From the IMG/VR virus record IMGVR_UViG_3300046808_001035: a DNA stretch of 64,000 bases; one strand, given 5' to 3'. The notes under the pieces were generated by a model. It did not search any database, was not told where the DNA came from, and saw only the letters and a program-made list of their open reading frames with translations. The stretch is from a virus. Shown one piece after another: positions 3,057 to 48,394 of this stretch (positions within the stretch are counted from its first letter, which is position 1; each line of letters begins with the position of its first letter). Made by a program: the position numbers and the translations under genes.

Positions 3057-3701
3057 TTAGCGATTTACAACATTATTTAACAATTGCCCGATCTTGGCTT
3101 TATTTAGCTTTGTATAGTAATATTCCTGTTCGCTCAGATGGTCTTTAGCTATCTCTCTAGCTAGCCCTTTATCTTTTGTGTGCTCTAGCTCGTGAGCTAC
3201 ACCTTTACGCAGTTCTTTTTTATTAAAAACGCTATCTGGCTTATTATCCCCTAGCCCACCCTTAAGCTTTTCTACGACTTTTCGCTTTTCGCTAGCTGTC
3301 TTGCTGTACCAACGAGCTAGTGCGCTGCTTTTATACATGTTGTTCTGAAGAGCCTCCATAGTAGCCTCTGTCTCTTCTTTCGTTATAGGAGCTATACGCC
3401 CAAAGTTACTCATTACTCCTGGATTGCCTAATCCTAGATGTATTTTTTGTGTAGCTTTTGGGATGTTTCCACCAAGAATAGCGTCAAGCAGCCCTGAGGG
3501 TTTAGCTGATGCCGCAATAGCTGCCCCAGGAACCTTTTGGATTATAGGATTTTTTAGCAACTGTTTATATTGCAGCTCTTGAGCATCGTGCTCTCTATCT
3601 CTACGCTCAAGAGCGTCCATCATAGATTCGCCATGCTCTGGAGCAGGCATTCTATTTCTACCAAAGAGTATTTTACTAACCTGGCTGTTTCTAGGATCCA
3701 T
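3057..3701 (-). CDS. DUF5661-like module protein (probable head-associated)
   Basis: ELRKGVAHELEHT...AREIAKDHLSE..YYTKL motif; K-x-A sites upstream (KSSA, KTA). Confidence 0.65.
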   Translation of the reverse strand: MDPRNSQVSKILFGRNRMPAPEHGESMMDALERRDREHDAQELQYKQLLKNPIIQKVPGAAIAASAKPSGLLDAILGGNIPKATQKIHLGLGNPGVMSNFGRIAPITKEETEATMEALQNNMYKSSALARWYSKTASEKRKVVEKLKGGLGDNKPDSVFNKKELRKGVAHELEHTKDKGLAREIAKDHLSEQEYYYTKLNKAKIGQLLNNVVNR

Positions 3702-4147
3702 TATTTTTTAGAAGCCCTGTCCATCTCTCTTCCGTAAGCCTGTAGTTTATCTAGTCTTCTCATGTTCATAAGGGCAGGTATTCCCTTTTTCTGTTTATCA
3801 ATAAATCCTTTAAATATAGAATCTGACTTGGGATCTTCGTGCTTCTTGATGTACTTTTTAATTTTATCTAATGTATTGGCTGTTTTGTATAGCTCTTCAG
3901 CAATCTTTACAGCTTCAACTATTTCATTTTCAGAGTAACCATATTCAGCTGCTCTTTTCATGAAGCCTTCAATATAAGCTTTCTTCTCAGGTAAGTCGCT
4001 ATGCTTAGTTTTAGCAAAGTCCCTCAGTTGCTTTTCAGTCATACTATCAGCAATTTCTTGAACTTTAGAGCCAAAACGACCCTTGCCTCTTTTAGAGGCA
4101 AGAGCCATCCCCATGAGTCTTTGTTGAGCTTCGCTTTTTGCGGGCAT
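3701..4147 (-). CDS. DUF3008-like module fused to an internal AYIEGF leader motif
   Basis: MPAKSEAQQRLMGMALASKRG...MTEKQLRDFAKTKHSDLPEKK followed by AYIEGFMKRAAEYGYSENE. Confidence 0.7.
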   Translation of the reverse strand: MPAKSEAQQRLMGMALASKRGKGRFGSKVQEIADSMTEKQLRDFAKTKHSDLPEKKAYIEGFMKRAAEYGYSENEIVEAVKIAEELYKTANTLDKIKKYIKKHEDPKSDSIFKGFIDKQKKGIPALMNMRRLDKLQAYGREMDRASKK

Positions 4148-4148
4148 A

Positions 4149-4646
4149 CTACCACCCTTGTTCTTGCTTTGTTTGATTGATCAGCTCATCCAGCTTTTGG
4201 TTGTAGCGTCTAACTCCTAAGCCTGCACCTAGAGCTCTTCCTCCAAGTCTACCTGAACTAACAGCACTTTGTATTGCTTCAGGGTCAGTTTGGCCTAGTA
4301 AATGAGATAGTCCATAGCCTGCAGCCCCTCCAGCGATGTCTCCCAGGAATGTGCCTCCAGAGATATTAGCTGTTCTGCTTGGAGAGCCCTCTTCGCTTGT
4401 GAGATCTTGATAAGCGTTATATGCAATAGGAGCCATCCCACCAGCTTCACCACCAACACTATCAGGAGCAACTCTACCCATCATCATAGCTCCTAGCATG
4501 TTCATCATTGGGTTAGCCTTCTGTTGTTCGAGGTTATAGACGTTTCTTTCGGCACGCTTCAGTAGCGCAACAGCCTCAGCTTCATTGAAGCCGTATTCAC
4601 TTGCTCTCTTAACGAATCCTTCGATGTATGCTTGCTCGTTAGTCAT
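4149..4646 (-). CDS. Shared-leader family protein (Gly/Ala-rich tail)
   Basis: N-terminus MTNEQAYIEGFVKRASEYGFNEAEAVALLKRA. Confidence 0.8.
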   Translation of the reverse strand: MTNEQAYIEGFVKRASEYGFNEAEAVALLKRAERNVYNLEQQKANPMMNMLGAMMMGRVAPDSVGGEAGGMAPIAYNAYQDLTSEEGSPSRTANISGGTFLGDIAGGAAGYGLSHLLGQTDPEAIQSAVSSGRLGGRALGAGLGVRRYNQKLDELINQTKQEQGW

Positions 4647-4647
4647 A

Positions 4648-4884
4648 TTAGAATTGTTCGTCGGCGGGCATAGGGACGAGAGGTTTTTTAGGAGGATTAG
4701 CTACATCATTAGCATTTCCCTTGATCGCGCTCGGTACCTTAGGTGCTGGTGCTTTAGGCTTACCAGCCATAGGCATTTCTCCTGCAGCCTGCTTTAAAAA
4801 ATTAATAGCTTCAGCTTCATTAAAGCCATATTCAGCTGCTCTCTTTACGAATCCCTCGATGTATGCTTGTTCTTGTTGTGTCAT
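4648..4884 (-). CDS. Shared-leader family protein (short Pro/Lys-rich tail)
   Basis: N-terminus MTQQEQAYIEGFVKRAAEYGFNEAEAINFLKQA. Confidence 0.8.
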   Translation of the reverse strand: MTQQEQAYIEGFVKRAAEYGFNEAEAINFLKQAAGEMPMAGKPKAPAPKVPSAIKGNANDVANPPKKPLVPMPADEQF

Positions 4885-4886
4885 AG

Positions 4887-5231
4887 TTATTCTGGTCTAG
4901 TTTTAAGTTTATTTCTCCAAAGGTCCACATCTTCTCTGACATTCTCATTTAAGCTTTTATAGTTACCCAAGTGGCCAAAGAATAAATGACAATATACTCC
5001 ATTACCTTTATCTTCGCAAAGAGTAATTAGGTTATTTGGGTCGAGTTCTAGCTCAGGGTTTAAGTGAAAAGGCTTTATATGATGAACCTCTAGCTTCTTC
5101 GTACCCTCGCAGAGAGCACAGGTAGGGTTGTTCTTGATGTGGTTCTTTCTAACAGTACGCCAATGCGACGATCTTTTGTGCAGGGGCTCTTTACCCTCCT
5201 GCATTTCTTTAAGTGTCGTTACGTTAGCCAT
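4887..5231 (-). CDS. HNH endonuclease (small phage type)
   Basis: W..VR...P.CxxC...LEVHHIKP...NLITLC...CH motif. Confidence 0.85.
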   Translation of the reverse strand: MANVTTLKEMQEGKEPLHKRSSHWRTVRKNHIKNNPTCALCEGTKKLEVHHIKPFHLNPELELDPNNLITLCEDKGNGVYCHLFFGHLGNYKSLNENVREDVDLWRNKLKTRPE

Positions 5232-5270
5232 AGATAGATTTTATAATACTAGAGTATTTTCTGCAAATAT

Positions 5271-5305
5271 ATAAAAGAAAAGACCCTCAGGTAATGAGAG
5301 TCTTT
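5271..5305 (-). terminator. Rho-independent terminator
   Basis: Minus strand AAAGACTCTCA-TTACC-TGAGGGTCTTT followed by TCTTTT, just downstream of 5327..5929. Confidence 0.7.
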
Positions 5306-5326
5306 AGCTTTACTAGGTTAATTAAA

Positions 5327-5929
5327 TTATCTAGCACCAGCAATACCTAGAGTCTGATTTCCTCCAAATGTATTATTTACAGCTGGAAGATTGAGTATGG
5401 GGCTATCTGCTCCAGGACCGACAGGAGTTCTTTGATACCCTGCTGCCCTTAAGCTTGGACCATAGAAAGTGTGCGCCGCTTGCTCTGCTCCTTGGCCTAA
5501 CGATTCTGCAGCTCCTGAGATTCCCTGTCTTAAAGCACTGCCAGCCCCTGAAAAACCTTGTCTTAAAGCGCTACCAGCTCCTGAAAAGCCTTGCCCCAGT
5601 GCCCTACCTGTCTGTCCAACCGTATTCATAGTATCGCGCACTCCTTGGCCTACAGTATTTACAGCGCCCTCAAGCTTCTGCCCCATATTGGAAGCTAAAT
5701 TATGTGCTCCCTGGTTCAAGGCCCTACCTGCCCCCATAACCATGTCCTTACCTCTATTAAAGGTATTTCCTACAGCTTGTACACCGCTGTCGGCCTTTGC
5801 TCCAAGCCTTTGACCTAAATCTGCAAAAGAAAAAGCTCTTTTGTATAATTCAATAGCCTCAGCTTCATTATAGCCGTATTCACTTGCTCTCTTTACGAAT
5901 CCGTTGATGTATGCTTGTTGTGTGTTCAT
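5327..5929 (-). CDS. Shared-leader family protein (11-aa Gly-rich repeats, QGFSGAGSALR)
   Basis: N-terminus MNTQQAYINGFVKRASEYGYNEAEAIELYKRA. Confidence 0.8.
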   Translation of the reverse strand: MNTQQAYINGFVKRASEYGYNEAEAIELYKRAFSFADLGQRLGAKADSGVQAVGNTFNRGKDMVMGAGRALNQGAHNLASNMGQKLEGAVNTVGQGVRDTMNTVGQTGRALGQGFSGAGSALRQGFSGAGSALRQGISGAAESLGQGAEQAAHTFYGPSLRAAGYQRTPVGPGADSPILNLPAVNNTFGGNQTLGIAGAR

Positions 5930-5973
5930 AATTTCTTCTAGTTTATTCTAAACTCTAGAATATATCAAATATT

Positions 5974-6420
5974 TTATAGCTTTTTAGTCGCCCTTCTTTT
6001 CCCATATGCTTCTAGTATTTTTTCTCGCACAAGCTCATCTTCTTCCTCGATATCTTCCTCGTCTAAACGCAATACGACATAGCCTCCCTTTGTAAGCTTT
6101 TGAGTTTTCTGACTGTCCTTGTATTGAGTCATAGCGTCTCCATGCCAGTATGCTCCATCAGCAAAAATAGCCACATTAGGCTCGATAAAGATGTCAGCGA
6201 TAGTGACACCTAGAATAGGTTTTTGAGTAACAAACTCTATATCTAGAGCCAAGAGCATAGCTTGCAGCTTAAGTTCTATACCTGTCTCTTTTCTGTCTCC
6301 AGAAAGATACCCTTTGATACTTGCGCACCGTTTAGAGCAAGTCTTGCCTTCCCGCATTCTTTCACTTTCACGAGGCCAGAGCTTTCCGCAAGTCTTGCAC
6401 TCGAATTTTTGCTTTTTCAT
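5974..6420 (-). CDS. DUF559/Vsr-like endonuclease with N-terminal Zn finger
   Basis: CxxC...CSxxC followed by E..L...L...Q...ADIFI...AIFADGAYWH...D..K...L...GYVVLRL. Confidence 0.75.
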   Translation of the reverse strand: MKKQKFECKTCGKLWPRESERMREGKTCSKRCASIKGYLSGDRKETGIELKLQAMLLALDIEFVTQKPILGVTIADIFIEPNVAIFADGAYWHGDAMTQYKDSQKTQKLTKGGYVVLRLDEEDIEEEDELVREKILEAYGKRRATKKL

Positions 6421-7778
6421 CAAGCAATCAATTCTTTGATCACATTACCATACACGTCAGTGAGCCTAAAGGGTCTGCCGTTATAGTTATAAATCAAACG
6501 TTCATGATCAAATCCCATTAAACGCAAGATAGTAGCATGAAGATCGTGGATGTGTACGATGTCTTTCATAGATTTAGAGCCCACCTCGTCAGTCTCTCCA
6601 TACCTTTGACCTCCTTTGACTCCTCCTCCGCACATCCATACACTGAAAGCTTTGCCGTTGTGATCTCTACCTGGAGCTCCTGCGCCTCCACCACTGGTAA
6701 CAGTACGTCCAAATTCACCTCCCCACACAATTAATACACTGTCGAATAATCCTCGTTGCTTGAGATCGCCTATAAGTGCGCTAAAAGCCTGATCATATCT
6801 ACGAGCTGTGTTACTCATAGCGTTTTTAATATCACTGTGGTGGTCATACCCCCCAACATTTACCTGAACCACACGCACACCACGCTCTACAAGCCTACGA
6901 GCAATCAGCATCTTTGCTCCTTCCTCAGTTTTTCCGTAGGCTTCTTTAATATTCTCAGGTTCTTTAGATATATCGAACGCGTCGCTAGCCTCTGTCTGCA
7001 TTTTAAACGCTGTCTCAAACGACTCTATACGGCTTTCTAGCTGTTCGTCTTTTTGAAGCTTCAGCATATGCTCAGTACTGAGGCTTTTTGCAAAGTCAAG
7101 TTGGCGTCTTTGACGAGATAACGACGAAACCTCGCTCTGAAGGTTAGCCAAAATCTCACTAGATTGTATATTCTGTCGATAGTTTACATTGCACCCCTGA
7201 TACATGCCTGGAAGAAATGCGCACTGACGAGATTCTGGAGAACTATTCAATGAAATGAACCCAGGCATGTTCTCATTTTGAGTGCCTAACCCATAAACGA
7301 GCCAGCTGCCTAGGCTAGGTTTACTAAGCTGCGCTGAACCTGTATGCATAAGCTTGCTAGCTATTCCATGATCAGGGATGTCTGTCTGCATGCTGTTGAT
7401 GATAGCCAGGTCATCAGCATGCTTACCCAACTCTTTCCATACCTCACTGATATTTAATCCTGATTTTCCAAATCTAGGAAATTCAAACGGTGAAGCTAAC
7501 AGATTACCGTAGTCGTGCTTCACTCCATCTCGCTTCTGCAGTTCAGGCTTATAGTCGAATGTGTCTACATGACTAGGCGCACCGCTAGCAAACAATTGAA
7601 TTATTGCTTTAGCCTTTACTGGGAAGTGTGGAGTCTTAGCAGCCATAGGGCTAGCTGCTTCTAGCGTTGTTGGGTTCAACCCAAACACGCTAGCTAGAGA
7701 CAATCCGCCCAAACCCCAGGCGAATTCGTTTAGGAATTCTCTTCTACTAGAGAACGATGGGTGATTGCCGCAGTTCAT
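6420..7778 (-). CDS. DUF1501 family protein with twin-arginine (Tat) signal
   Basis: SSRREFL Tat motif; AKAIIQLF.SGAPSHVDTFDYKP, ARRLVERGVR.VQ, YDHH, VWGGEFGRT, GRDHN, GGG.KGG..YGETD, HIHDLHATIL, RLTDV.G motifs. Start moved to ATG 7778, one base after the upstream TAA. Confidence 0.9.
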   Translation of the reverse strand: MNCGNHPSFSSRREFLNEFAWGLGGLSLASVFGLNPTTLEAASPMAAKTPHFPVKAKAIIQLFASGAPSHVDTFDYKPELQKRDGVKHDYGNLLASPFEFPRFGKSGLNISEVWKELGKHADDLAIINSMQTDIPDHGIASKLMHTGSAQLSKPSLGSWLVYGLGTQNENMPGFISLNSSPESRQCAFLPGMYQGCNVNYRQNIQSSEILANLQSEVSSLSRQRRQLDFAKSLSTEHMLKLQKDEQLESRIESFETAFKMQTEASDAFDISKEPENIKEAYGKTEEGAKMLIARRLVERGVRVVQVNVGGYDHHSDIKNAMSNTARRYDQAFSALIGDLKQRGLFDSVLIVWGGEFGRTVTSGGGAGAPGRDHNGKAFSVWMCGGGVKGGQRYGETDEVGSKSMKDIVHIHDLHATILRLMGFDHERLIYNYNGRPFRLTDVYGNVIKELIA

Positions 7779-7779
7779 A

Positions 7780-8520
7780 TTATTTAAACCTTTTTGCAAA
7801 AGAGTCGTTAAAAGATTTTTGCCATTCTTTTAAATCAAGATTTTTAACTGTCGCAAAAAAATCGTTTTCTTTTTCGTACTCGGACAAATCTGGTATATTC
7901 TGAATGGGAGGTCTAAAAGATTTTCCCCATTTAGGGTTGTATTTATTCATATGCTCTTTGAGCATCTTATTGTAGAGATACTCTTGAGATGCTGGAAAAT
8001 CTGGTGAGTTTATGTCTTCCGTGTAAGCATCTACAAATTTATTGCCATCATATTTTTGTGGACGCGGTAAGGGCTTATTACGGTACTGGTTTGCGCTTGC
8101 AAGATCTCTGAAATGACCACTTGCCATATCTGTAGAGTCAAAGGCGTCTTGCTTGACAGAAGAATCAGGGGGGTCAAACCCAAACACAGGTTTTTTACCC
8201 ATAATATCTCCAAGCCCTTGCACCCACTTGTCTTTCGGCGTCATGCTAGATAAAGGAGCATTTTTCAAAATACTTAAATCTTTCTTGTTCGGTGTATATC
8301 CTGGTGCACTAGATGCAGGCGCAACACTAGGCGATTGAGTAGTTGTAGCAGAATTAAAGTTCTGCTGCTTAGTTGCACCAGCAGGCCACATAGGATCTTG
8401 CTGAGCTACCACATTTTGAGCGTTAGCTCTCTTCCACAGCGTGATAGCTTCATTTTCACTGTAGCCATAGTCAGCCGCCCTCTTTACAAACCCATTGATG
8501 TATGCTCGCTGTGTGGTCAT
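7780..8520 (-). CDS. Shared-leader family protein
   Basis: N-terminus MTTQRAYINGFVKRAADYGYSENEAITLWKRA. Confidence 0.8.
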   Translation of the reverse strand: MTTQRAYINGFVKRAADYGYSENEAITLWKRANAQNVVAQQDPMWPAGATKQQNFNSATTTQSPSVAPASSAPGYTPNKKDLSILKNAPLSSMTPKDKWVQGLGDIMGKKPVFGFDPPDSSVKQDAFDSTDMASGHFRDLASANQYRNKPLPRPQKYDGNKFVDAYTEDINSPDFPASQEYLYNKMLKEHMNKYNPKWGKSFRPPIQNIPDLSEYEKENDFFATVKNLDLKEWQKSFNDSFAKRFK

Positions 8521-8546
8521 ATTGCTTTACTCTAACTCAAACGCAA

Positions 8547-8587
8547 ATCAGGGATCACCGAAGCTTTAATCTCCAATGATCCCTGAT
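8547..8587. terminator. Intergenic hairpin (11-bp inverted repeat), possible terminator/processing site
   Basis: ATCAGGGATCA ... TGATCCCTGAT. Confidence 0.5.
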
Positions 8588-8606
8588 ATTACTAACGCTT
8601 TTTAAG

Positions 8607-9131
8607 TTACTTTCTTCCAGGAGCTGCTGTGGCAGGGGCATTACCCATAACTCCACCGTAAGCATTAGCTGGACTCTTTCTTGTTCCCTGCATGTTCGGG
8701 TTGTTGATACCTAAAAACCCCATGATCTTCTCATTCATGGTAGGATCAGCACTTGCTGCTGCAGAGCCCCCACCAATAACAGCAGAGCTAGGGGTTGGTG
8801 TAGGTGCCTGAGGCTTGACTGAAGGTGCAAGTGCCTGAGGCTTGACTGAAGGTGCAGCCGCACCTCCACGGTTAAAAAGACTAGACATGATTTGCGTGTC
8901 TGGTGTGCCTGGAGCTGTTAACGGATTAAACCCGTCCGCAGCTTGTTTACGCTGTCTGAGCTTTTTTAGATCAGAACCTTCAATCTTGCCGTCTTTATCT
9001 ACATCAAGCTTATGCTGATCTCCTTTGAGCTCAGATGCTCTCTTAAAGATCTCTACAGCCTCATGTTGACTGAAGCCATACTCAGCTGCGCGCTTAACGA
9101 ATCCTTCAATATATGCTTGTTCTAAGTTCAT
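8607..9131 (-). CDS. Shared-leader family protein with EF-hand-like micro-module
   Basis: MNLEQAYIEGFVKRAAEYGFSQHEAVEIFKRA then KLDVDKDGKIEGSDLKKLR, KQA, and a Pro/Ala-rich tail. Confidence 0.8.
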   Translation of the reverse strand: MNLEQAYIEGFVKRAAEYGFSQHEAVEIFKRASELKGDQHKLDVDKDGKIEGSDLKKLRQRKQAADGFNPLTAPGTPDTQIMSSLFNRGGAAAPSVKPQALAPSVKPQAPTPTPSSAVIGGGSAAASADPTMNEKIMGFLGINNPNMQGTRKSPANAYGGVMGNAPATAAPGRK

Positions 9132-9172: not shown

Positions 9173-10183
9173 TTAGCTAAAAAAGAAGAGTAATGCAAGC
9201 GTAATAAGTATTGTGAGTACGATGATAAACGGTAGAGCTGGCTTCTTTTCTTCCACAACAACCACAGGTTCTGGTGCAGGAGGCACAACAGGCTCTACAA
9301 CCTCAATAACCGGAGGCTCAACAACTGGCTCGACCACAGGTTCAGGCGTAGGCTCAATTACCGGTTCTGGCTTGGGCTCTTCAACAGGGTCACTCTCATA
9401 CTCATCGCTAGTCTCTGTAAGTCTGACAGTCCAGAAGTCAAAGCTGTCGTTGCTCATGATATAGCTCAATGGAATATAGCAATATCCCTTGTCTCCCCAG
9501 TTTGTTCCCCAGCTATTCTGCACAATCAGATATTCTTGCCCATTGTAATTTTTAATATACCCTACAGCGAGCATGCAGTGAGCGCCTACAAACTTCTCTG
9601 ACTCTCTGTCAGGAGCGAGCATAAACCCTCCCATGAGCTCCATGAAAGGATCGAAGAAAGACGCGTATAAGTTTAATCCAAACGCAAAAGGATAACCGTC
9701 GTTTAGACAGTTGAGCCACTCATCTTTGTTAAAATCGTCTATTTTAAGATATTCTAAAGCCTGATGCTTCTCAGCAATCTTCCATGCCTCTTCAGGCGGA
9801 TTTTCATTATAGTTTTCAATTATATAGGGCCATACCCTCTCCATACTCACACCATCTCTAGCTAAGCTTTTAAGAGCATCGCGTATAGCTGCCCCAGAGT
9901 CAGTCAATATGGGGGCTACAGCTTTGCGAGTAGCATAGTATGTGAACAGTGGGCTAGGCATCCAGCGAACCATGCTGTGCTTTCTGCGAACAAAGTCGAA
10001 CATCGAGGTAGCGGCAAAAGCCGTACACGAACCTATATTTCCTTGGGCTCTAGGAACGCTGCAGTCTTTTCTAAGGTCTATATTGTTTAGCTCGGTCCAG
10101 TGTGTAAGCTTTGGTTTATACGGTCTGTCCCTAGGATCTTCCACTTGTTTATTGCAGCCATGCTTAAAATCTTCAATATTCAT
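9173..10183 (-). CDS. Papain-like cysteine peptidase (C1A) with Pro/Glu-rich stalk and C-terminal membrane anchor
   Basis: QGNIGSCTAFA (Gln/Cys), GAHCMLAVGY (His), QNSWG..WGDKGY (Asn); C-terminal hydrophobic helix LPFIIVLTILITLALLFFF. Confidence 0.9.
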   Translation of the reverse strand: MNIEDFKHGCNKQVEDPRDRPYKPKLTHWTELNNIDLRKDCSVPRAQGNIGSCTAFAATSMFDFVRRKHSMVRWMPSPLFTYYATRKAVAPILTDSGAAIRDALKSLARDGVSMERVWPYIIENYNENPPEEAWKIAEKHQALEYLKIDDFNKDEWLNCLNDGYPFAFGLNLYASFFDPFMELMGGFMLAPDRESEKFVGAHCMLAVGYIKNYNGQEYLIVQNSWGTNWGDKGYCYIPLSYIMSNDSFDFWTVRLTETSDEYESDPVEEPKPEPVIEPTPEPVVEPVVEPPVIEVVEPVVPPAPEPVVVVEEKKPALPFIIVLTILITLALLFFFS

Positions 10184-10184
10184 A

Positions 10185-11771
10185 TTATCTATATTTGAGG
10201 TTTAATTCAGTCTGTGTTTTATATTCTGATGGTAGATGTACCTTTTTTGGTGCAGCTTCTTCTCCCATATCGAGGAATTTTCTAAGCTCAGATTTAGCTT
10301 TGTTTCTAGCTCTGCTTTTAACTGCAGCTTTCTGACCTGCTCTTAGAGCAGCTTTATCTCCAGTGAGAATAGCTTTTCTGATATGATCTGGCATAGCTGC
10401 AGTTTTTTCGTAAGGATATTCTTTTAGCTTAACGTGCTTGTTGAAAAATTTACCAGGGCTCTTCACTCGTTTAATCCGATCGAATATAGTTTTAGGAACA
10501 TCTAGATATTTATATTCAGAACCACTATGGAAAGCTACATCTAGAGATTTACTAGGTTTGTCGTACCCTACAGCTCGGATGTTAGAGCTCTTTAATGGAT
10601 AGGTTGCTTCGCTTGATTTTAATACGCAGCCTATTTTCTCGAACAATGAACTGTGATCTTCGCCACACTTACAATTCCACTTCCTTAAGGACTTGTTGAT
10701 ACGACTGTCTGGATCACTCTGAGCTTTGCTTCCTGTGTTCACTCGCTTCATCCCACACATACGACTACAGAAGCTGTTTTGACGCTTAGCTCTATCTCCT
10801 TTAGGGTTGCTCTCTGTGACTGGAGCTTTGAGTGTTCCTCCTGTTTGTTTTTTATAGCTGGCTCTTCCTTTAGCATTCAATCCGCCTTCAGGATTCTTGC
10901 CTTCGCTACGCTGCCATGCAGGACTAGCTGCAGATTCTTTACTCAATTTATCCCATTGTTTCTTGTCTGGATAATCCTCATCTCCAGGTTTAGCAGCTTT
11001 CTCTCCACGCTTTCTCTTTGCATGAATATTTGCCCATAGGCCAGGACGCTCAGCAGACTGCTTTTCCATTGAAGCAGTCTTCTCTACAGGACAACATAGA
11101 TCACCTTTTACCTCATAACCCTCTGGAACACTATATTCCATTTCCTTGAGATACTCACCACTGAATGCTTTACCTTCATCTACTAGCTTAGCTACCTCTT
11201 TAGGTACCCCTGCAACCTTCTCTATATACGCGTACAGGTCCAACACTTCACTTGTTTTCTCTAACTCAGTATAGCCTTCAACCTCAAACCCTAGTTTACC
11301 CAATAACTCAACATCTTCATTATTTACGAACAAGCCACCATCAACATCAGCTATTCCAGTATTACGACTATATGCTATAGCTCTCTTACTTAACAATGTT
11401 CCTTCTCTAGGATCGGTTGGCTTTGATATATCTGGCAGCTTCTCTAATACTCGTGGAATCTTTGTGAACTGCTTGTTATGCTGTGGCGCTGGTACACCTG
11501 TGTTATATCCTCGTGCAGGATTAGATACAGGTGTAGTTATTGCAGGCTTGGCTGAACTTGCGCCTGACAATGGAACACTGTTAGGGTTAGTCACAGTAGG
11601 TTGTAGAGATTTAATCTTATTCTCTAATGAACTCTCGTCAGGGTTAGGATTATCCTGCTCACCGTTCTCTGATGGTGCGTAGCCCTGAAGCTCTAGAGCA
11701 GTTTTTTCTTTTTTTCTGTTTTCTGCTGAAGAAAGTTTGAGAAAATTGAGATATTGTACAAGCGCAGACAT
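10185..11771 (-). CDS. Modular protein: GLWANIH module, DUF6321-like module, KTSC domain
   Basis: GLWANIHAKRKRG; AWQRSEGKNPEGGLNAKGRASY...SFCSRM...SRINKSLRKWNC; SSNIRAVGYD...L.V.F.SG..Y.Y..VP...S.GKFFN..VK. Confidence 0.75.
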   Translation of the reverse strand: MSALVQYLNFLKLSSAENRKKEKTALELQGYAPSENGEQDNPNPDESSLENKIKSLQPTVTNPNSVPLSGASSAKPAITTPVSNPARGYNTGVPAPQHNKQFTKIPRVLEKLPDISKPTDPREGTLLSKRAIAYSRNTGIADVDGGLFVNNEDVELLGKLGFEVEGYTELEKTSEVLDLYAYIEKVAGVPKEVAKLVDEGKAFSGEYLKEMEYSVPEGYEVKGDLCCPVEKTASMEKQSAERPGLWANIHAKRKRGEKAAKPGDEDYPDKKQWDKLSKESAASPAWQRSEGKNPEGGLNAKGRASYKKQTGGTLKAPVTESNPKGDRAKRQNSFCSRMCGMKRVNTGSKAQSDPDSRINKSLRKWNCKCGEDHSSLFEKIGCVLKSSEATYPLKSSNIRAVGYDKPSKSLDVAFHSGSEYKYLDVPKTIFDRIKRVKSPGKFFNKHVKLKEYPYEKTAAMPDHIRKAILTGDKAALRAGQKAAVKSRARNKAKSELRKFLDMGEEAAPKKVHLPSEYKTQTELNLKYR

Positions 11772-13433: not shown

Positions 13434-13784
13434 CTAGGCTAGCACGCTCTTTTTGAGTCGATACTTATCAGCCAATTCAGCCAATGCATCTCTCCAGAGT
13501 TTTACGACGAGGTCATCATGGATCTCTTGCAGTTCTCTGATCAGCTTGAGATGCTTCTTGGGGGCATAGTTCGTTTCAACTAGATCTCTCCAAGTTTTCA
13601 TCTCAATTTTGCGGTCATACTCATCATCCGCAATGAGACAACCTGCTGCACATCGAAGCGGACCATGATGATATCTGCATGTCACCTGTGTGGCGCTTCG
13701 CACGTTTTGTTCGAGCAGGTGCTTTGCTACCTGATCGAAGACTTGCTGCCTCGTGCTCTTATTGAGTGTTTTCAGTGTGATCAT
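13434..13784 (-). CDS. MITL/CAAGCLI paralogue family member (cassette D)
   Basis: Start set at MITLKTL; QVFDQVAKHLL..C.Y...LRCAAGCLIADDEY...LIRELQEIHD shared with four other ORFs. Confidence 0.75.
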   Translation of the reverse strand: MITLKTLNKSTRQQVFDQVAKHLLEQNVRSATQVTCRYHHGPLRCAAGCLIADDEYDRKIEMKTWRDLVETNYAPKKHLKLIRELQEIHDDLVVKLWRDALAELADKYRLKKSVLA

Positions 13785-14119
13785 AGATATCCGTGGGTTT
13801 CGAACTTTCCATTTTCTTTTTCTAGCAGTATTTGGAAATTCGTTTTCTCGAATTTGCATATGAGGTTGTGTAGAACCTCTATATGCTTTTTGAATATGAA
13901 AACCCCGATTACTGTCTCTCCATCGAGGTTCGGCTTCAGCTCTTCTAGCGTAGCCTGTAGGGGTTTTACCCTACTATCAATAACCATACCCACAACCGGA
14001 GTACAGTCTCGCAGTTTTGGAAAAGCTGCGGCAAGATGACTATGAGATATCTTCTCGATATCTTCACCACTCTTGTTGTCTTTTGTGGGGACTACCACAA
14101 TCGCCGTTTTAATCTTCAT
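13781..14119 (-). CDS. Hypothetical protein (cassette D)
   Basis: 112 aa; ATGA overlaps with both neighbours. Confidence 0.6.
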   Translation of the reverse strand: MKIKTAIVVVPTKDNKSGEDIEKISHSHLAAAFPKLRDCTPVVGMVIDSRVKPLQATLEELKPNLDGETVIGVFIFKKHIEVLHNLICKFEKTNFQILLEKENGKFETHGYL

Positions 14120-16480: not shown

Positions 16481-16517
16481 AAGGCAGTTGCTCTATCCAA
16501 CTGAGCTACTGGTGCGT

Positions 16518-16605
16518 TGGTGGCCTAGGCGGGACTTGAACCCGCACGGGGAGTGCTCCCCAACAGATTTTAAGTCTGTCGTGTCTGCCATTTCACCACA
16601 GGGCC
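16518..16605 (-). tRNA. tRNA-Leu(UAA)
   Basis: Cloverleaf with ACAGA-CT-TAA-AA-TCTGT, long variable arm, TTCAAGT loop, encoded CCA. Confidence 0.93.
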
Positions 16606-16617
16606 TTTAACTAAAAA

Positions 16618-16935
16618 CTATTTCCTAGAACGTCTCTTGTCTAGGCTATAGTTTACGAATTGTGCGTCTTCCAGCGCAATACCTTTGCCCTGAATAAACG
16701 CAGACGAACTCACATCTTCAAGTGAGCGGAACTCCCACTCGCCAGTCTTCATGTTGTACTGGGCAAACTCTCGCTTGACCAGCTCAAGCTTCCATTGAGC
16801 GTCCGTAATTTTACGGACAGCAGCAACCTTTGCCTCGTTGAGTGCTGCGGAAAAATACATTCCGTCAACAACTCCGAGCAAGAGCACACCTGCCGTGTAC
16901 GCTGCCAGCTTAAACCAGCTATAGTTCATAAGCAT
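16618..16935 (-). CDS. Hypothetical membrane protein
   Basis: N-terminal hydrophobic segment; A.YN..TGEWEF tail. Confidence 0.6.
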   Translation of the reverse strand: MLMNYSWFKLAAYTAGVLLLGVVDGMYFSAALNEAKVAAVRKITDAQWKLELVKREFAQYNMKTGEWEFRSLEDVSSSAFIQGKGIALEDAQFVNYSLDKRRSRK

Positions 16936-17305
16936 AGTTTGCGTGTGGATGATTGAGATTCAGTCTAACTCTTTTGCCAGTAACCACACGGTCACCGACA
17001 AGCCAAGCTTTGCTAGTCCAGGCGTTACCCTGATCTAGCGAGCCTAGGTATTTACGGGCCTCGGCTATCCGATTTTCTGCGAACCAGCGAGGGGTAGCAT
17101 AGTGCCCGTTAACCTTTCCGGTTACTTCGATTACTGTCATCGACGACGGCCTCCACTCGGAGCTAGGCCAGGCGTTAGTGCAAACACCACTACTCTTTGT
17201 GAGTTTAGGCATCTGCGCTACCACATCGCTTGAGCTCATAGTTTTTGCTATGTGCTCGATCTCTGCAGCGATTGTCTGCAGCTTTTGCATGACTTCAGAA
17301 TTCAT
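16919..17305 (-). CDS. Hypothetical protein, paralogue of 17305..17796
   Basis: Shared VTGK..G.....F.....AR..L.SLD.G..W motif. Confidence 0.7.
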   Translation of the reverse strand: MNSEVMQKLQTIAAEIEHIAKTMSSSDVVAQMPKLTKSSGVCTNAWPSSEWRPSSMTVIEVTGKVNGHYATPRWFAENRIAEARKYLGSLDQGNAWTSKAWLVGDRVVTGKRVRLNLNHPHANYAYEL

Positions 17306-21657: not shown

Positions 21658-23433
21658 ATGACTACACCTGACGATCCTCAATCCTACTTCAAAGTAGGAG
21701 ATAACGGTAGAGATAGATACTCTAATCCGTTCTATAACATCCCGCTCCAATATTTGCCGATGAATATTGAGGGTATGCTCTTGTGGGCAGAGCATCTCTT
21801 GTTCCGTAATGGTTTTTATAAGCAGGCACTTAATAGAATCGCAAACTATTTCATCACTTCTCTATCTATTGAGTGCGATGATGAAGAGGCCAAGCAAGAG
21901 TATACGCGGGTTTTTGAGCAGCTGCAGTGGAAAAAGATATGCTCTAAAGCAGGCTTGAACATGCTAGCCTTTGGAAATGAATTTATTACGGTCAACCAAG
22001 GCTTTAACAGGTATCTATCTTGTCCTAGCTGCAACAAGACTACAAACATCAGCAAAATATTCAATTACGAATTTCATAAGAATAAGTATTCTATGGGCTG
22101 CTTGAAGTGCGGCTACAAAGGAGAGCACAAGTGCCTAGACAAACCTGCCACAGACGTTGATAAGATTCACGTAGTTCATTGGCCTGCTAAAGAAATCAAG
22201 ATTCGTTACGAGGAAACTACAGGCGAGTCTGAGTATTTCTGGGATATTCCTCAGCAGTACGCTAAAAAGGTTACAACCAAGAATAATAAGTTCTATAGTA
22301 AAAAGACCCCACAAATAATTTACGAGTGCATTCATAACAAAACGATGCTCGCGTTCAATCCTAAGAACTTTATCCATCTAAAGCTTGATACGCCTAACAC
22401 TATCAGGACGGACGGTAAGGCAATTCCTCCAAGTATGTTTATTTTTGAGGATTTCTTTATGCTTCAAACCTTGAAGAGATATAACGAGGTTATCTGTTTT
22501 GAAGATATTGCTCCTTTCCGAGTAATTTCTATGGGTGATGGCTCAAACCCAGCAGCAAACCCTCTTCTTAACCAGAATGGTGCTGTTTGGACCAACGCTG
22601 TGGATGAAATGATTGAGGAGCACAGACGAGATCCGGGGTCATATCATAAATTTGCATTTCCTTTGAGCTACCAGCAGCTAGGAGGAGAAGGTACCAAGCT
22701 CGCGCCTGTCGAAATGATGGATCAAGCAAAGAAAAACATACTAAATGCTCTAGATATTCCTGTAGAGATGTTTGAAATGACTTTTCAGCAGCAGGCAGCA
22801 GCTCCAATGTTGCGCATGTTCGAAAATGCCTGGAGTGTTATACCCTCAAACTACAACACTCTGTTAAACCACCTAGGCACTGTTGTAGGTAATATCCTTG
22901 GTCTACCTAAAGCCAAGGTATCAATCATTCCAATTACGTTTTCTGACGATATTGAGCGTAAGGGTGTTATTAGCCAGCTTGTTTCAGCTAATTCCATTGC
23001 CCGTAGCGAGCTTCTCAAGCTCTACAACTTCGATTACGAAGACCAGATCAGAAAGAAAATGGAAGAAGATCGCATTACACAAGAAATCCAGCAAGAAGAG
23101 AAAGAAAAACAAGAGCTCGCTCAGGCAGGGCAGCAAAACGTTCTTCAGGTACTTCAAGGCCAAGCTCAAGGAGGAGCTCAAGGACAGCCAGGACAACCTG
23201 GTCAAGTCCCATCAGGAGGAGGCACGCCTCAAGATGCTCTTGAGCAGGCTCAACAGATGGCGCAACAGCTATTCCCTCTCGATGGTGCTCAGCGCAGAGC
23301 CCAGCTGCAGCAGATCAAGGCTCAAGACCAGGATATGTATGCTCAGGTTAAAGCCCAGCTGGAGCAAATGACATCTCAATCTCGGTCCCAAGGATTACAA
23401 GGGGCTAAACAACAAGCAGCCCAAGGAGGATAA
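21658..23433 (+). CDS. Putative portal protein
   Basis: 591 aa; helical N-terminus, GNEF beta-rich stem, disordered Gln-rich tail; size and layout fit a portal but no diagnostic motif. Confidence 0.55.
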   Translation: MTTPDDPQSYFKVGDNGRDRYSNPFYNIPLQYLPMNIEGMLLWAEHLLFRNGFYKQALNRIANYFITSLSIECDDEEAKQEYTRVFEQLQWKKICSKAGLNMLAFGNEFITVNQGFNRYLSCPSCNKTTNISKIFNYEFHKNKYSMGCLKCGYKGEHKCLDKPATDVDKIHVVHWPAKEIKIRYEETTGESEYFWDIPQQYAKKVTTKNNKFYSKKTPQIIYECIHNKTMLAFNPKNFIHLKLDTPNTIRTDGKAIPPSMFIFEDFFMLQTLKRYNEVICFEDIAPFRVISMGDGSNPAANPLLNQNGAVWTNAVDEMIEEHRRDPGSYHKFAFPLSYQQLGGEGTKLAPVEMMDQAKKNILNALDIPVEMFEMTFQQQAAAPMLRMFENAWSVIPSNYNTLLNHLGTVVGNILGLPKAKVSIIPITFSDDIERKGVISQLVSANSIARSELLKLYNFDYEDQIRKKMEEDRITQEIQQEEKEKQELAQAGQQNVLQVLQGQAQGGAQGQPGQPGQVPSGGGTPQDALEQAQQMAQQLFPLDGAQRRAQLQQIKAQDQDMYAQVKAQLEQMTSQSRSQGLQGAKQQAAQGG

Positions 23434-34863: not shown

Positions 34864-35226
34864 TTAAGAGTCTATAACTGCACAATCTAGCTGAAATAGT
34901 TGAGCAATCGTGGCAAGCTCTTCCCGCCATTGAAAAACATCGTATTCGTCGTGGATCTTCTGCAGTTCTCTTATTAAATGATCGTGCGTCTTTGGCACTT
35001 TCTTAAACCTAGTCAAATCAAACCACGTATTGCTCTCTAGGCTGAAGTTATACTCATCATCACCGATGAGACATCCTGCAGCGCATTTTAGTCCTTCGTC
35101 ATTTCTGTATACGCAGAATTTATTATCGCTATCCTGACACCTTTTACCTTGTTTTAGTAAGTGCTCTGCAACCTGGTCAAATACCTCTTGTGCGGTTGCT
35201 TGCTCTAGTGTTGCTAGTGTGATCAT
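34864..35226 (-). CDS. MITL/CAAGCLI family member
   Basis: MITLATLEQATAQEVFDQVAEHLL...GLKCAAGCLIGDDEY...ELQKIHD. Confidence 0.8.
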   Translation of the reverse strand: MITLATLEQATAQEVFDQVAEHLLKQGKRCQDSDNKFCVYRNDEGLKCAAGCLIGDDEYNFSLESNTWFDLTRFKKVPKTHDHLIRELQKIHDEYDVFQWREELATIAQLFQLDCAVIDS

Positions 35227-35618
35227 TTGTTTTCAAATTGGTCAATTATTGTACTGTTAAGGTTTCTTAGCTCTGCAATGTTCTTCAATCTAACTATCCA
35301 ATCTTCTTCTGGATAATACTGTGAATTGTCGTGAATACCCTGCAATTCTGATATGAGTCTGCTATGCTTATTACTAAGCACAACTCCTTGACTAATCAAG
35401 GTTGACCAAGGAGTAGTATTCATCCCCTGAGATGACACAAACTTCGCTTCTTCGTCACTCATCAAGCATCCTGCAGCGCATTTGAGTCCACCGTCCCCTC
35501 GATAGGCACAAACATCATGATTGATCATACTTCTCTGTTTCTGAGTGAGCATATGTGCTGCCACCTGGTCAAACACTTCCTGTGCTGTGGCTTGTTCTAA
35601 TGTTGCTAGTGTGATCAT
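35223..35618 (-). CDS. MITL/CAAGCLI family member
   Basis: First 20 aa identical to the neighbour; GLKCAAGCLM; ELQGIHD. Confidence 0.8.
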   Translation of the reverse strand: MITLATLEQATAQEVFDQVAAHMLTQKQRSMINHDVCAYRGDGGLKCAAGCLMSDEEAKFVSSQGMNTTPWSTLISQGVVLSNKHSRLISELQGIHDNSQYYPEEDWIVRLKNIAELRNLNSTIIDQFENK

Positions 35619-41475: not shown

Positions 41476-41847
41476 TTAATCTCCATAATTTTGACCTAAC
41501 ACGTCTGTGGATAGGTTGTGTAACGCTGCCAGAGTACCTAGTCTTGATCGCCATTCCTCTACAGGGTCGACATCGTGAATGTCTTGAAGCGCTCCAATGA
41601 GTAGCGAATGCTTGGGAGTAACGTCAGCTTCATGAATCAAGTCATCCCAGCAAGTGTCTTCCATCTCCATAAAGTACTCATCTTCACTGATAAGACAACC
41701 CGCCGCACATCTAAGTCCTCCCTCTCCGTAATAAGCACAGTTACCCTGCCGAGATAGACTTTTGGCTCCTTGTGTTAATAGGTGCTTTGCCACATGATCA
41801 AAGACTTCTTGAGCCGTTGCTTTTGGTAATGTTGTTAGCGTGAGCAT
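41476..41847 (-). CDS. MITL/CAAGCLI family member
   Basis: MLTLTTL..ATAQEVFDHVAKHLL...LRCAAGCLISEDEY...LQDIHD. Confidence 0.8.
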   Translation of the reverse strand: MLTLTTLPKATAQEVFDHVAKHLLTQGAKSLSRQGNCAYYGEGGLRCAAGCLISEDEYFMEMEDTCWDDLIHEADVTPKHSLLIGALQDIHDVDPVEEWRSRLGTLAALHNLSTDVLGQNYGD

Positions 41848-44963: not shown

Positions 44964-45302
44964 TCATCTCTGAAACCTTTCTGGTGTTTCGTGAATGTTG
45001 CCGATGACTTCTAGCTTATCTCTGTAATACGCTAGGGCTTGATGATCTCCGTCTATGTTTTCAACTTGGTAGCCTGAATACTCTAGAGAGTAGCTTACAA
45101 CATAGATATAAGCTGTACCTCGTCTCTTCACAATGTCGCCTTCATAGATTTCAATACCGTGGATGTCAGTGGAACCGATATATTGCTGTACCGGATAATC
45201 TTTTTGATCTAGGTACCGATCTGAAAGGTCGAAATCATCAAGTCCGAAATAGGCGAATTTTCCTATATCTGGAATATATACTCTGAATTTAAGTGTTCTC
45301 AT
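44964..45302 (-). CDS. YopX family protein
   Basis: MRTLKFR...QYIG..D..G.EIYEGDIV...EVIGNIHE. Confidence 0.85.
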   Translation of the reverse strand: MRTLKFRVYIPDIGKFAYFGLDDFDLSDRYLDQKDYPVQQYIGSTDIHGIEIYEGDIVKRRGTAYIYVVSYSLEYSGYQVENIDGDHQALAYYRDKLEVIGNIHETPERFQR

Positions 45303-45708
45303 TGTTCTCCTCCTGCTTGTCTAGCTCTTCAGATTCTTTAATTCGCCTCAAGACCTCCATGAATGCTTCTGCTTTGTATCTGCTAGGAATGTGAAACGTA
45401 TCGTAGGTATACCCTTGGAGAATATTTTTATACACAAACCAGAACACTTCTCCATACTTGAAGTGCATCAAACACTCTTCGGCTTTGTGCATAGCGTCGA
45501 GACTACTCACATAGTCTGGAACTTTGACATACACTGAAAAGCTGTTAGGTCTAGCGTCAACTATAGACGCAGTCAACATATAGCAGTCTAGCCCTGTACC
45601 CTCAGCTTCAACTCGTAAATCTACATTTTTATACCCACAAAATTCAGCAATCGCCTTGTTGATCTCGTTTTTTATTTGTTCTGCTAGTGGTCCTGTTGAG
45701 TATTCCAT
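45289..45708 (-). CDS. EINIA/PDY..SLDAM family member
   Basis: EINKAIAEFCG...PDYVSSLDAMHKAE...KAEAF. Confidence 0.75.
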   Translation of the reverse strand: MEYSTGPLAEQIKNEINKAIAEFCGYKNVDLRVEAEGTGLDCYMLTASIVDARPNSFSVYVKVPDYVSSLDAMHKAEECLMHFKYGEVFWFVYKNILQGYTYDTFHIPSRYKAEAFMEVLRRIKESEELDKQEENNENT

Positions 45709-46037
45709 TTTCCTAATGTTTTTAAGAATGCTTCTGCTTTTTGACGGGCGGTGGCTGTGAGTAGCTCATCATAATGATGACTCTTTGATATACGTGCTGC
45801 GTAATCATAAATCAGCACGCCTTTAATTGTTCTAATTACCTTCTCTGCTTCATGCATAGCATCGAGGCTGTTCACATAATCTGGCACTCTCTTCCAAACA
45901 GCTTCACCTCCATGATGTTCAGCTTCATACCATAAACAAACACCCTCAGGATCAAATTTACCTCTACGAGTGCCTCTTTTCACTGGAAGGTTAAACACGA
46001 CTTCTGCGATCTTTTGATTAATTTCAAGGTCAGTCAT
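45684..46037 (-). CDS. EINIA family member
   Basis: MTDLEINQKIAE...PDYVNSLDAMHEAE...ATARQKAEAFLKTLGKW. Confidence 0.8.
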   Translation of the reverse strand: MTDLEINQKIAEVVFNLPVKRGTRRGKFDPEGVCLWYEAEHHGGEAVWKRVPDYVNSLDAMHEAEKVIRTIKGVLIYDYAARISKSHHYDELLTATARQKAEAFLKTLGKWNTQQDH

Positions 46038-46079
46038 TTTCTTTCCACTTTCCTAATGTTTTTAAGTATGCTTCTGCTC
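46021..46079. repeat. 59-bp exact direct repeat (second copy 47180-47238) spanning a gene junction
   Basis: atttcaaggtcagtcattttctttccactttcctaatgtttttaagtatgcttctgctc at both sites. Confidence 0.9.
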
Positions 46080-46374
46080 GTTGTCTTGCTCTAGCTGATA
46101 ACCATCCACGTTTTGCAGGTGTTGGGTTATCCCGCAAAGCTATTAAATATAGTTCATTACTGAATGCTCTGTAGGAGCTAGTGTCCATGCTTAGCTCAAC
46201 CTCATGCATAGCATCGAGGCTATTCGCATAGTCTGGGCACTCTTTCAAAAGATATCCTTCTGGATCTCGCTCTGTCTTTGGTCCACATGGAGTCAGACAA
46301 TGCGTGATACCATCTGAGACAATAGTGAATCCACGGCTTTTATGGACAGCTATATTGATTTCTTCACTAGTCAT
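46030..46374 (-). CDS. EINIA family member
   Basis: Start set at MTSEEINIAV; PDYANSLDAMHEVE...ARQRAEAYLKTLGKW. Confidence 0.8.
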   Translation of the reverse strand: MTSEEINIAVHKSRGFTIVSDGITHCLTPCGPKTERDPEGYLLKECPDYANSLDAMHEVELSMDTSSYRAFSNELYLIALRDNPTPAKRGWLSARARQRAEAYLKTLGKWKEND

Positions 46375-46869
46375 ACTATTTCTTCCAGCTAAAACCGAAG
46401 AAGTTATACACTTCAAAAAAGCTAGTTTTATTCTCTCTGTGATAACTGTTGTAGCTGATCATGGGGTAATACCACCCTTTCTCCCATTGAAAATGCCAAT
46501 ACTTGATACGAATGTTAATAAATGTGTTATCCATATTATTCTTCTGGAGTCCAAGCAAGAATTAGGTGAAATGTACCAAAACACATTCCGTGAGAATCGA
46601 AAGGAATTTTTCCCATTTCTGGATTAAAATCTTCGTTAATTGCTTCTGAAATATCCCGATCTATATCACATACATCTAAAACCTTGTCTTCTATTGTATA
46701 ATTCCTTTGAACTATACGATATATGTCGCCACCATGACATTTTTTCCTAAGTACTATATCTTTTTTTGCTGATTCTAAATCAGAATGAACTCCATCAAAC
46801 GCATCAAACCATGATCTACCTATATGTGATTCATATTGCACAACGTATTTCGTAAAGTCTTTACTCATA

Positions 46870-47196
46870 TTATTCCTTCCATTTATCGAATGCTCGCAGC
46901 ATAGCTTCTACTCTTTGTCTTGCTGTAGCAAAAAATGCTGAGGCAAATTCTTCTGCGTCGGGGTTGTCTCGATCAACAATCGCGCAAAGCTCATTTGTAA
47001 ATATTAGCCTTTTTTCTTCTGTTAGTTTAGGCCAAAGAGCTTCGAATGTATAAGCGTCATCCCAGTAATCAGGTATCAAGCGTCTATGTCTTCCTTCAGG
47101 ATTTGTTCCAACATATTCGTAATACTTCAAATCTTTTTCGATATTTGTCCACCCACACAATTCAGCTAGAGCGATATTGATTTCAAGGTCAGTCAT
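46870..47196 (-). CDS. EINIA family member
   Basis: MTDLEINIALAELCGW...PDY...ATARQRVEA. Confidence 0.8.
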   Translation of the reverse strand: MTDLEINIALAELCGWTNIEKDLKYYEYVGTNPEGRHRRLIPDYWDDAYTFEALWPKLTEEKRLIFTNELCAIVDRDNPDAEEFASAFFATARQRVEAMLRAFDKWKE

Positions 47197-47554
47197 TTTC
47201 TTTCCACTTTCCTAATGTTTTTAAGTATGCTTCTGCTCTTTGTCTTGCCGAGGCATGAAGTAAATCGAAGTGCTCCGACAGATCTATTGCCGAACCATGA
47301 CACAGAACTAGCAATAACCTGAAAGCGAAATCTCGCCTTTGTTTATCGTCTAGCCGCTCTTCAGCCTCTCTCATGGCGTTTAGGTTATTGCAATAATCAG
47401 GAAACGTGCAACTACCAGCAACAGGAGGAGATCCAATACGCACCATTTCCGGAACATCGCTTACGTCCCAATATTTTTGTGGTTTTGGTAGCACCTTGCA
47501 ATTTTTCCACCCAAGTGACTCTGCAATTGCTATATTAATTTCTTCGCTAGTCAT
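47189..47554 (-). CDS. EINIA family member
   Basis: MTSEEINIAIAESLGW...PDYCNNLNAMREAE...ASARQRAEAYLKTLGKW. Confidence 0.8.
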   Translation of the reverse strand: MTSEEINIAIAESLGWKNCKVLPKPQKYWDVSDVPEMVRIGSPPVAGSCTFPDYCNNLNAMREAEERLDDKQRRDFAFRLLLVLCHGSAIDLSEHFDLLHASARQRAEAYLKTLGKWKEND

Positions 47555-47589
47555 TGGTTATTTCAGGTTCTTTGTATCAAATCATAGAG

Positions 47590-47916
47590 TTATTCGACTC
47601 GCTCGTATGTTTCCTCAAAAATACTAGGCTTGCACGGATAACGCTCACCTTTTACTCCTGTGATAATATAATCACCAGGACATACTCGATGCCCGCCTTC
47701 AAGTGTATCTATCCAGCCGTGGTGATGAATTAGCTTATGACAATGTGAGCATTCATAATGTCCAGCTATATCAGGGTGCCTGAAGTATCTCACAACCTTA
47801 CCTTCGCTCAGGAAAGCTGGATTAGCGTCAATAAGAACGCACTGGTCATCTGGGTGGTCTCCGTTTTTAAACCATTGCGTGGCTTCTATAACTACTGGTT
47901 TCTTTCGATATTTCAT
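47590..47916 (-). CDS. Conserved phage protein (KYRKKPVVIEA / PGDYII family)
   Basis: MKYRKKPVVIEA.QW...IDTLEG...PGDYIITGVKGE.YPCKP.IFEETYE. Confidence 0.8.
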   Translation of the reverse strand: MKYRKKPVVIEATQWFKNGDHPDDQCVLIDANPAFLSEGKVVRYFRHPDIAGHYECSHCHKLIHHHGWIDTLEGGHRVCPGDYIITGVKGERYPCKPSIFEETYERVE

Positions 47917-48077
47917 AGTGATACTGTTTCTTCTAGGTTAATTTCTTCGTCATTGATGTCCATAGACAAACATGAAGTAAACAAAGGTCATTCCGACATT
48001 GAGACCCATAAGAAAGAATCCAAATAGATAGTTCTCAGGGTTCTCACAGATTTCTTTTCTAATTTGAGGTGGGATCT

Positions 48078-48305
48078 TCATTGCTGTCTTTCGTTCCAAA
48101 TCTTGATCAGCTTAGCAGGAAATATAAAATCATCCCAAAATTGTTCAATCAGTTCTCGTTTGAGGTAAGACCAAGGCCCAGCACAGCCACAGTCGTGACA
48201 AACAACATTAGCTGGTACTCCTTCTCTGTCTTCTGTGCTAGTCTGGATATTCAGATCCTTTGAACCACAGAAAGGACAAGGTTTGATATCTTCGTTCACT
48301 TTCAT
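48078..48305 (-). CDS. Lar-like (restriction alleviation) zinc-finger protein
   Basis: KPCPFCGS...VVCHDCG..GP...WNER. Confidence 0.7.
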   Translation of the reverse strand: MKVNEDIKPCPFCGSKDLNIQTSTEDREGVPANVVCHDCGCAGPWSYLKRELIEQFWDDFIFPAKLIKIWNERQQ

Positions 48306-48310
48306 ATTAG

Positions 48311-48394
48311 CTAGAACGCACTGGTCATCTCGATGATCTCCATTTTTAACGATTGCGCGGCCTCTATAACTACTGGTTTCTTTCGATATTTCAT
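48311..48394 (-). pseudogene. Frameshifted 5' fragment duplicated from 47590..47916
   Basis: 48313-48428 is an imperfect copy of 47834-47950 with a 1-nt deletion; translates MKYRKKPVVIEAAQSLKMEIIEMTSAF*. Confidence 0.75.

Follow-up and report, generated by a model that had tools for sequence, protein, structure and literature searches.

The window, by which we mean the whole 64,000-nucleotide stretch of viral DNA analyzed here, is part of a large phage genome, which encodes tRNAs and a probable portal along with numerous small genes. Six of its open reading frames, all on the minus strand, carry a copy of one 27-residue module ending in K-x-A, which we call the tag. The first-pass annotation of this DNA referred to these frames by their low coordinates, and we do the same. 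They are listed here with two genes of the same region that contain other relevant modules.

3057-3701, minus strand: 214 aa; C-terminal DUF5661
3701-4147, minus strand: 148 aa; DUF3008 module, K-K-A junction, internal tag at 3899-3979 (residues 57-83), basic tail
4149-4646, minus strand: 165 aa; N-terminal tag at 4551-4631, then a Gly-rich tail
4648-4884, minus strand: 78 aa; N-terminal tag at 4786-4866, then a short Pro/Ala/Lys tail
5327-5929, minus strand: 200 aa; N-terminal tag at 5834-5914, then a Gly/Ala tail with 11-residue repeats
7780-8520, minus strand: 246 aa; N-terminal tag at 8425-8505, then a tail whose family follows the tag in relatives too
8607-9131, minus strand: 174 aa; tag at 9036-9116, then a 28-residue EF-hand-like module ending in K-Q-A and a Pro/Ala tail
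10185-11771, minus strand: 528 aa; no tag; DUF6321, KTSC, and Trp-containing modules, preceded by K-x-A/S

A six-frame HMM scan of the window returned these six copies only (E<3), and their alignment has an invariant core (A-Y-I-x-G-F-x-K-R-A, Y-G, one E, and the final K-x-A), bearing out the first-pass claim that one module is common to the six frames. Identity of the window copies to one of their number is 50 to 71%. Both halves of the module are amphipathic, its shape is consistent with a helix-turn-helix around an invariant Gly, and the structural look-alikes of the tag in the Atlas are generic helical hairpins only. No match to the module, as a known stand-alone domain or otherwise, was found in the Pfam, NCBIfam, PHROG, or PADLOC profile libraries. 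Across about 140 copies from 150 representatives outside the window, conservation falls after K (96%), x, and A or S (83% and 12%), and K-x-A/S closes 137 of 143 copies; the similarity does stop right after the terminal K-x-A, as had been claimed. An extra K-R-A lies inside the module itself, and K-x-A precedes internal copies. The earlier description of the tag as an N-terminal leader fits five of the six window copies but not the module at large, which can be N-terminal, internal, or C-terminal and also occurs in a conserved gene of the head operon described below.

Repeats in the leader DNA lie where the first-pass annotation had placed them, and it had taken them as a sign of recent duplication or exchange. 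Third-position identity supports this for 4149, 4648, and 5327 (71 to 85%) but not for the other copies, the remaining window pairs lying at 41 to 72%, mostly 47 to 59%; between window copies and other genomes the value is 53%. At the DNA level, copies within a genome are slightly closer than copies between genomes (0.586 versus 0.541; permutation p 0.011). Since only those three copies exceed the third-position background, we reject recent duplication of all six.

Several other minus-strand genes lie among the tagged ones. The gene at 9173-10183, inside the cluster, encodes a papain-family peptidase (Peptidase_C1) whose sequence contains Pro/Glu/Val repeats and has a hydrophobic anchor at the C-terminus. 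At 6420-7778 is a DUF1501 protein, possibly host-derived, which with an upstream start would have an RR-x-FL motif resembling a twin-arginine signal; presumably, this gene hints at a host of the Planctomycetota/Verrucomicrobiota type. HNH and DUF559/Vsr-like endonuclease genes (4887-5231 and 5974-6423) are inserted between tagged genes, and hairpins at 5279-5305 and 8547-8587 part neighboring genes. Sigma-70 promoters are matched here about as often as chance predicts (17 versus 16.6 expected). Matches of 5327 to tape-measure and apolipoprotein sequences are likely compositional, and we rejected them.

Other repeated elements were seen elsewhere on the minus strand of the window. Five paralogues of about 120 to 140 aa (13434-13859, 34864-35226, 35223-35618, 41476-41847, and 50166-50531) share Q-x-VFDxVA-x-HLL and C-A-A-G-C-L motifs. 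Several small genes within 45289-48768 open with a common T-(D/S)-x-E-I-N helix; this is another N-terminal module that recurs, and it comes without K-x-A enrichment. The paralogue pair at 48962-49756 and 50888-51781 has a GG-x-IASML motif and looks nucleotidyltransferase-like by eye, and short tandem repeats at 1-383 probably belong to a minus-strand fiber gene running off the window start.

A profile of the module retrieved 505 protein clusters at 50% identity. Five related phage genomes carry 7 to 12 matches each; the complete relative G004 (204 kb) has 12, is collinear with the window, and has many genes in common with it. The tag-bearing clade is an uncultured group of phages of about 200 kb. 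The probable portal ties the window to the relatives that we used for head analysis.

21658-23433, plus strand: probable portal, 591 aa; 82% identity with the G004 copy, match to Arash gp204 (annotated as a portal) at E 1e-50, portal-like Atlas hits

Among cultured phages we found no close copy of the tag, and a weak likeness to half of the module in Arash gp223 and D69 gp271. In cellular genomes the module is all but missing, with two matches in bacterial genome bins. One lies on a 2.5-kb contig of a Bacteriovoracaceae bin (L110) that encodes cargo genes of the clade type and is likely a misbinned phage fragment, not a sign of the host; the other (L111) spans 14 residues and has no clade genes nearby.

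The head operon lies outside the 64-kb window, and the mechanism proposed below is read from the head loci of relatives. Their gene order is a K-x-A-rich protein of 500 aa, a variable protein, a protease, a gene with two to three module copies, scaffold-like proteins of 300 and 130 aa (so labeled by position and composition only), in many cases a tagged gene, and finally a decoration-like protein and the major capsid protein. The gene directly after the protease holds its two to three copies in all 12 distinct close head loci, half of which have an extra tagged gene just ahead of the decoration and capsid genes, and 12 more distant loci have at least one copy between the protease and the scaffold-like gene. 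A tag-only profile detects the head-operon copies (E 6e-4 and 2e-3), and a profile of the head-operon copies detects all six window copies (E 1e-7 to 8e-12). The tag and EF-hand-like module of 8607 are the same pair as in the head-operon gene. The capsid protein (319 aa) has matches among 50,697 records only in Arash and Vibrio D69-group phages, and PDB sequence searches with it gave nothing useful; the head is not of the T4-like (gp23) type. Outside the head block, the tail region of L042-L053 has a conserved gene of about 80 aa (about 16500-17250, plus strand) that starts with the module and follows a probable sheath gene of about 940 aa. A 353-aa gene of G004 far from the head operon (193591-194652; L025:13591-14652) has that genome's highest K-x-A excess (15 versus 2.8) and is a candidate for a further core protein.

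The protease of these loci has matches to a PHROG of head maturation proteases (E 2e-9) and to gp19 of phage G (E 2e-11), which is annotated as such a protease (PMC12484599). We modeled its domain from a 74-sequence domain alignment (pLDDT 87). The closest fold is T4 gp21 (5jbl; Z 9.7, rmsd 2.9, 128 aligned), followed by varicella-zoster protease (1vzv; Z 8.3, rmsd 3.1, 114 aligned) and then by unrelated folds from Z 6.3 down; Foldseek gave no significant match for the model, and PDB sequence searches with the protease gave nothing useful. The predicted fold of the relatives' protease is that of a gp21-like prohead protease. His104 and Ser155, putative catalytic residues by their conservation, do not vary among 120 homologues. 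Immediately behind the catalytic domain, two K-x-A sites, with x varying, are kept in 118 and 119 of these 120; several more sit within the domain itself and cannot all be cut. Two proteases depart from the usual form: that at L044:3802-6360 has 852 aa instead of about 480, possibly through an intein or other insertion, and that at L041:4762-6204 contains an insertion in which three Cys never vary and a His is mostly kept, so that it might bind zinc.

We ranked 400 spaced residue pairs by observed versus expected counts. K-x-A tops all of them in six head-core proteins (58 versus 21 expected, z 8.9), K/A pairs at other spacings are neutral there, and K-x-A is likewise neutral in the control proteins, taken from replication, the tail, and the window. 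The pair also comes top in four distant head loci and in each of Arash, D69, and Rizal; in phage G it comes second. In T4, the positive control, the same test put L-x-E first and I-x-E second, and L/I-x-E is the known gp21 cleavage motif (PMC9026906). A K-x-A excess also occurs without this protease (S-SCSM1 gp92, 17 versus 9; T4, z 2.3). Near the capsid N-terminus, K-x-A stands at one fixed position in 25 of 25 distinct variants, with x being K, Q, E, or D, and the Arash and D69 capsids have K-E-A there. From these motif statistics, we consider it highly probable that the protease cuts at K-x-A. The cut would fall after Ala, by analogy to gp21 and the herpesvirus protease. The herpesvirus maturational protease cuts after Ala, with a hydrophobic residue, not Lys, two before the cut, which makes Ala at P1 plausible for this fold. 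Our literature search, which covered few subscription journals, found no description of a K-x-A head code and no papers on cleavage sites in Arash, the D69 group, phage G, or cluster C mycobacteriophages.

The tails behind the tag show a different pattern. The six window tails are mutually unrelated, as the first-pass annotation had stated (best E 0.05), and several belong to families known from relatives; its description of them as low-complexity suits four, in which small or polar residues make up 55 to 64%, and 3701 and 7780 less so. K-x-A is the most avoided pair in tagged tails (61 versus 127 expected, rank 400 of 400), and the avoidance persists with one tail for each of 69 families (35 versus 77), survives local shuffles, and is absent in control proteins. 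K-x-G is at under half of its expected count and R-x-A is unaffected. This avoidance, the most discriminating of our results, is the mark that selection would be expected to leave on peptides exposed to the protease that have to come through intact. K-x-A is avoided in one head-operon family too, although its members are related and hence not independent. The median tail is about 110 residues long, 83% of tails are basic overall, Cys makes up 0.05% of them versus 1.8% of controls, and 21 of 126 have glycine-zipper-like patterns. Known domains occur in only a handful of tails from 150 tagged proteins, so any function assigned to the tails is a guess; no MuF domain was matched in these proteins or in the window genes.

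Cargo modules are joined in the same manner. The module starts just after K-x-A/S in 5 of 5 cases for KTSC, 9 of 9 for DUF6321, and 22 of 22 for the EF-hand-like module, counts that are partly not independent, since the tag itself can supply the preceding K-x-A. The modules of 10185-11771 occur behind the tag in relatives, and this gene, by its sequence, probably belongs to the same cargo system; the DUF5661 module of 3057-3701 is seen in relatives' tag-bearing proteins, and this gene may belong too, less certainly. DUF3008, which precedes the tag in 3701 through the K-K-A junction, is also found in T4-like cyanophages. Its match in cyanophage S-SCSM1 carries the annotation "virion protein", and there DUF3008 leads into a T4-style motif resembling the T4 capsid-targeting sequence (CTS) at the place where the window has the tag. 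The S-SCSM1 paper reports 45 proteins by mass spectrometry, and we did not find the DUF3008 ORF named in it; we found no papers on DUF3008 or Arash.

Taken together, the comparisons among relatives give good support to the first-pass reading of K-x-A as a head-protease site and of the head as the destination, with the amendments that the tag is not solely a leader and that duplication concerns three of six copies. We weighed other explanations for the same pattern. The tagged proteins might be accessory parts of the scaffold or core, with a structural tag and tails that are neutral filler, all cut and cleared with nothing delivered. That would suit the module's place in a conserved gene beside a scaffold-like gene, its weak likeness to the C-terminal repeats of Arash gp223 and D69 gp271, and variable tails almost free of domains; however, true scaffold-like proteins are K-x-A-rich where tails avoid K-x-A, and several tail modules are conserved across genomes, making this explanation unlikely. 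We give somewhat less credence to a hairpin of general use, for oligomerization or as an adaptor, that works outside the capsid in the infected cell, with K-x-A merely a helix end. It leaves unexplained the spacing-specific enrichment in the head, the avoidance in tails, the fixed capsid site, and the head-operon location, and the module is essentially absent from cells, even if two amphipathic helices, generic look-alikes, internal copies, and a copy in a tail-region gene are what such a hairpin might show. Processing by another enzyme, either a host protease or the papain-like peptidase whose gene sits among the tagged ones, is very improbable, given that K-x-A enrichment accompanies the head protease's family in Arash, D69, phage G, and Rizal and that the catalytic domain of the head protease is itself flanked by conserved K-x-A sites. 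We rejected the papain-like candidate because complete G004 has no homologue of it despite 12 module matches.

We therefore favor, with reasonable confidence, a reading of the module's sequence as a cleavable head-loading tag that works like the T4 CTS without being of the CTS family. The two-helix module would serve as an address tag for the prohead interior, and tag-bearing proteins would co-assemble with the head core; loading through the tag in this way seems likely to us. A gp21-like prohead protease would then cut after K-x-A, less often after K-x-S or K-x-G, shredding the scaffold-like proteins, trimming about 26 residues off the major capsid protein, removing the tag, and separating strung-together modules. 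The freed tails, as flexible basic peptides with almost no Cys, would remain in the head and probably bind packaged DNA or leave with it at ejection. This is the weakest step, and we consider injection or DNA binding by the tails an even chance. New cargo could be gained by fusion to a tag copy, and the tag itself probably derived from a head-operon gene.

A further-reaching possibility, which we put forward tentatively, is that the tag is the scaffold's own head-binding hairpin, released from the head operon and reused as an address label, served by a gp21-like K-x-A protease, with hundreds of undescribed, Cys-free, largely unstructured peptide families loaded and injected. Scaffolds of the P22 type have a comparable coat-binding hairpin. 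The likeness between the tag and the C-terminal repeats of Arash gp223 and D69 gp271 covers 16 aligned columns at a probability of 75%, partly owed to the common K-x-A; the whole-protein E to Arash gp223 is 4.5e-5 and single domains give E 0.09 to 0.3. This weak likeness is a lead toward a scaffold origin. If this possibility is true, the peptide families could be listed from sequence by tag and K-x-A avoidance.

If a head-loading tag is the right reading, head loading would also exist in a separate lineage, one that includes cultured Arash, phage G, and cluster C mycobacteriophages, and would there use a Lys-x-Ala code and a portable tag of its own. Motif enrichment and avoidance would then sort head proteins from sequence alone into those destroyed and those retained, and the 505 tagged clusters would supply candidates for injected peptides. 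With a working tag, proteins of choice could be directed into such heads, and Salmonella phage Arash offers a cultured test case for the K-x-A system.

Several known systems resemble the one proposed here. Arash, Vibrio D69/D148/D181, Bacillus phage G, and cluster C mycobacteriophages have the same protease family and K-x-A-rich head modules, and Arash and D69 also have the same capsid protein and gene order, but the tag's likeness in these cultured phages is limited to the half-module resemblance noted above. The herpesvirus assemblin, the second-best fold match, belongs to eukaryotic viruses and has no cargo-tag family. MuF-fused effectors packaged in heads (PMC9503650) likewise join one head-associated module to exchangeable cargo, although MuF is larger and its cargo enzymatic, whereas our tagged proteins have no MuF and mostly non-enzymatic tails. 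In the large phages SPN3US and phiKZ, a diverged gp21-like protease trims many head proteins at a motif of three residues, but there gp245 cuts after Glu in A-X-E, propeptides run from 20 to 254 residues, and we found no portable common tag described (PMC10052503).

The closest parallel is the CTS of T4 internal proteins IPI-III with gp21 (PMC9026906), a common propeptide on unrelated small basic proteins. In both systems, the tag ends in the protease motif (here a putative one, the pair most enriched in relatives' head-core proteins), the protease has a gp21-like fold (predicted for our relatives), and scaffold-like proteins contain many sites. The T4 CTS, however, has 10 residues and is cut after Glu (L/I-x-E), as the experimentally mapped head proteases of T4, phiKZ, and SPN3US all cut after Glu (PMC9026906), while the tag here is a 27-residue, predicted two-helix module ending in K-x-A. 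The two have no evident sequence likeness, the tag here can also be internal and is found two to three times in a head-operon gene, and the phage that bears it is not T4-like. The principle of a head-loading tag is thus already known from T4, and what is new here is a different tag and the proposed K-x-A cut site.
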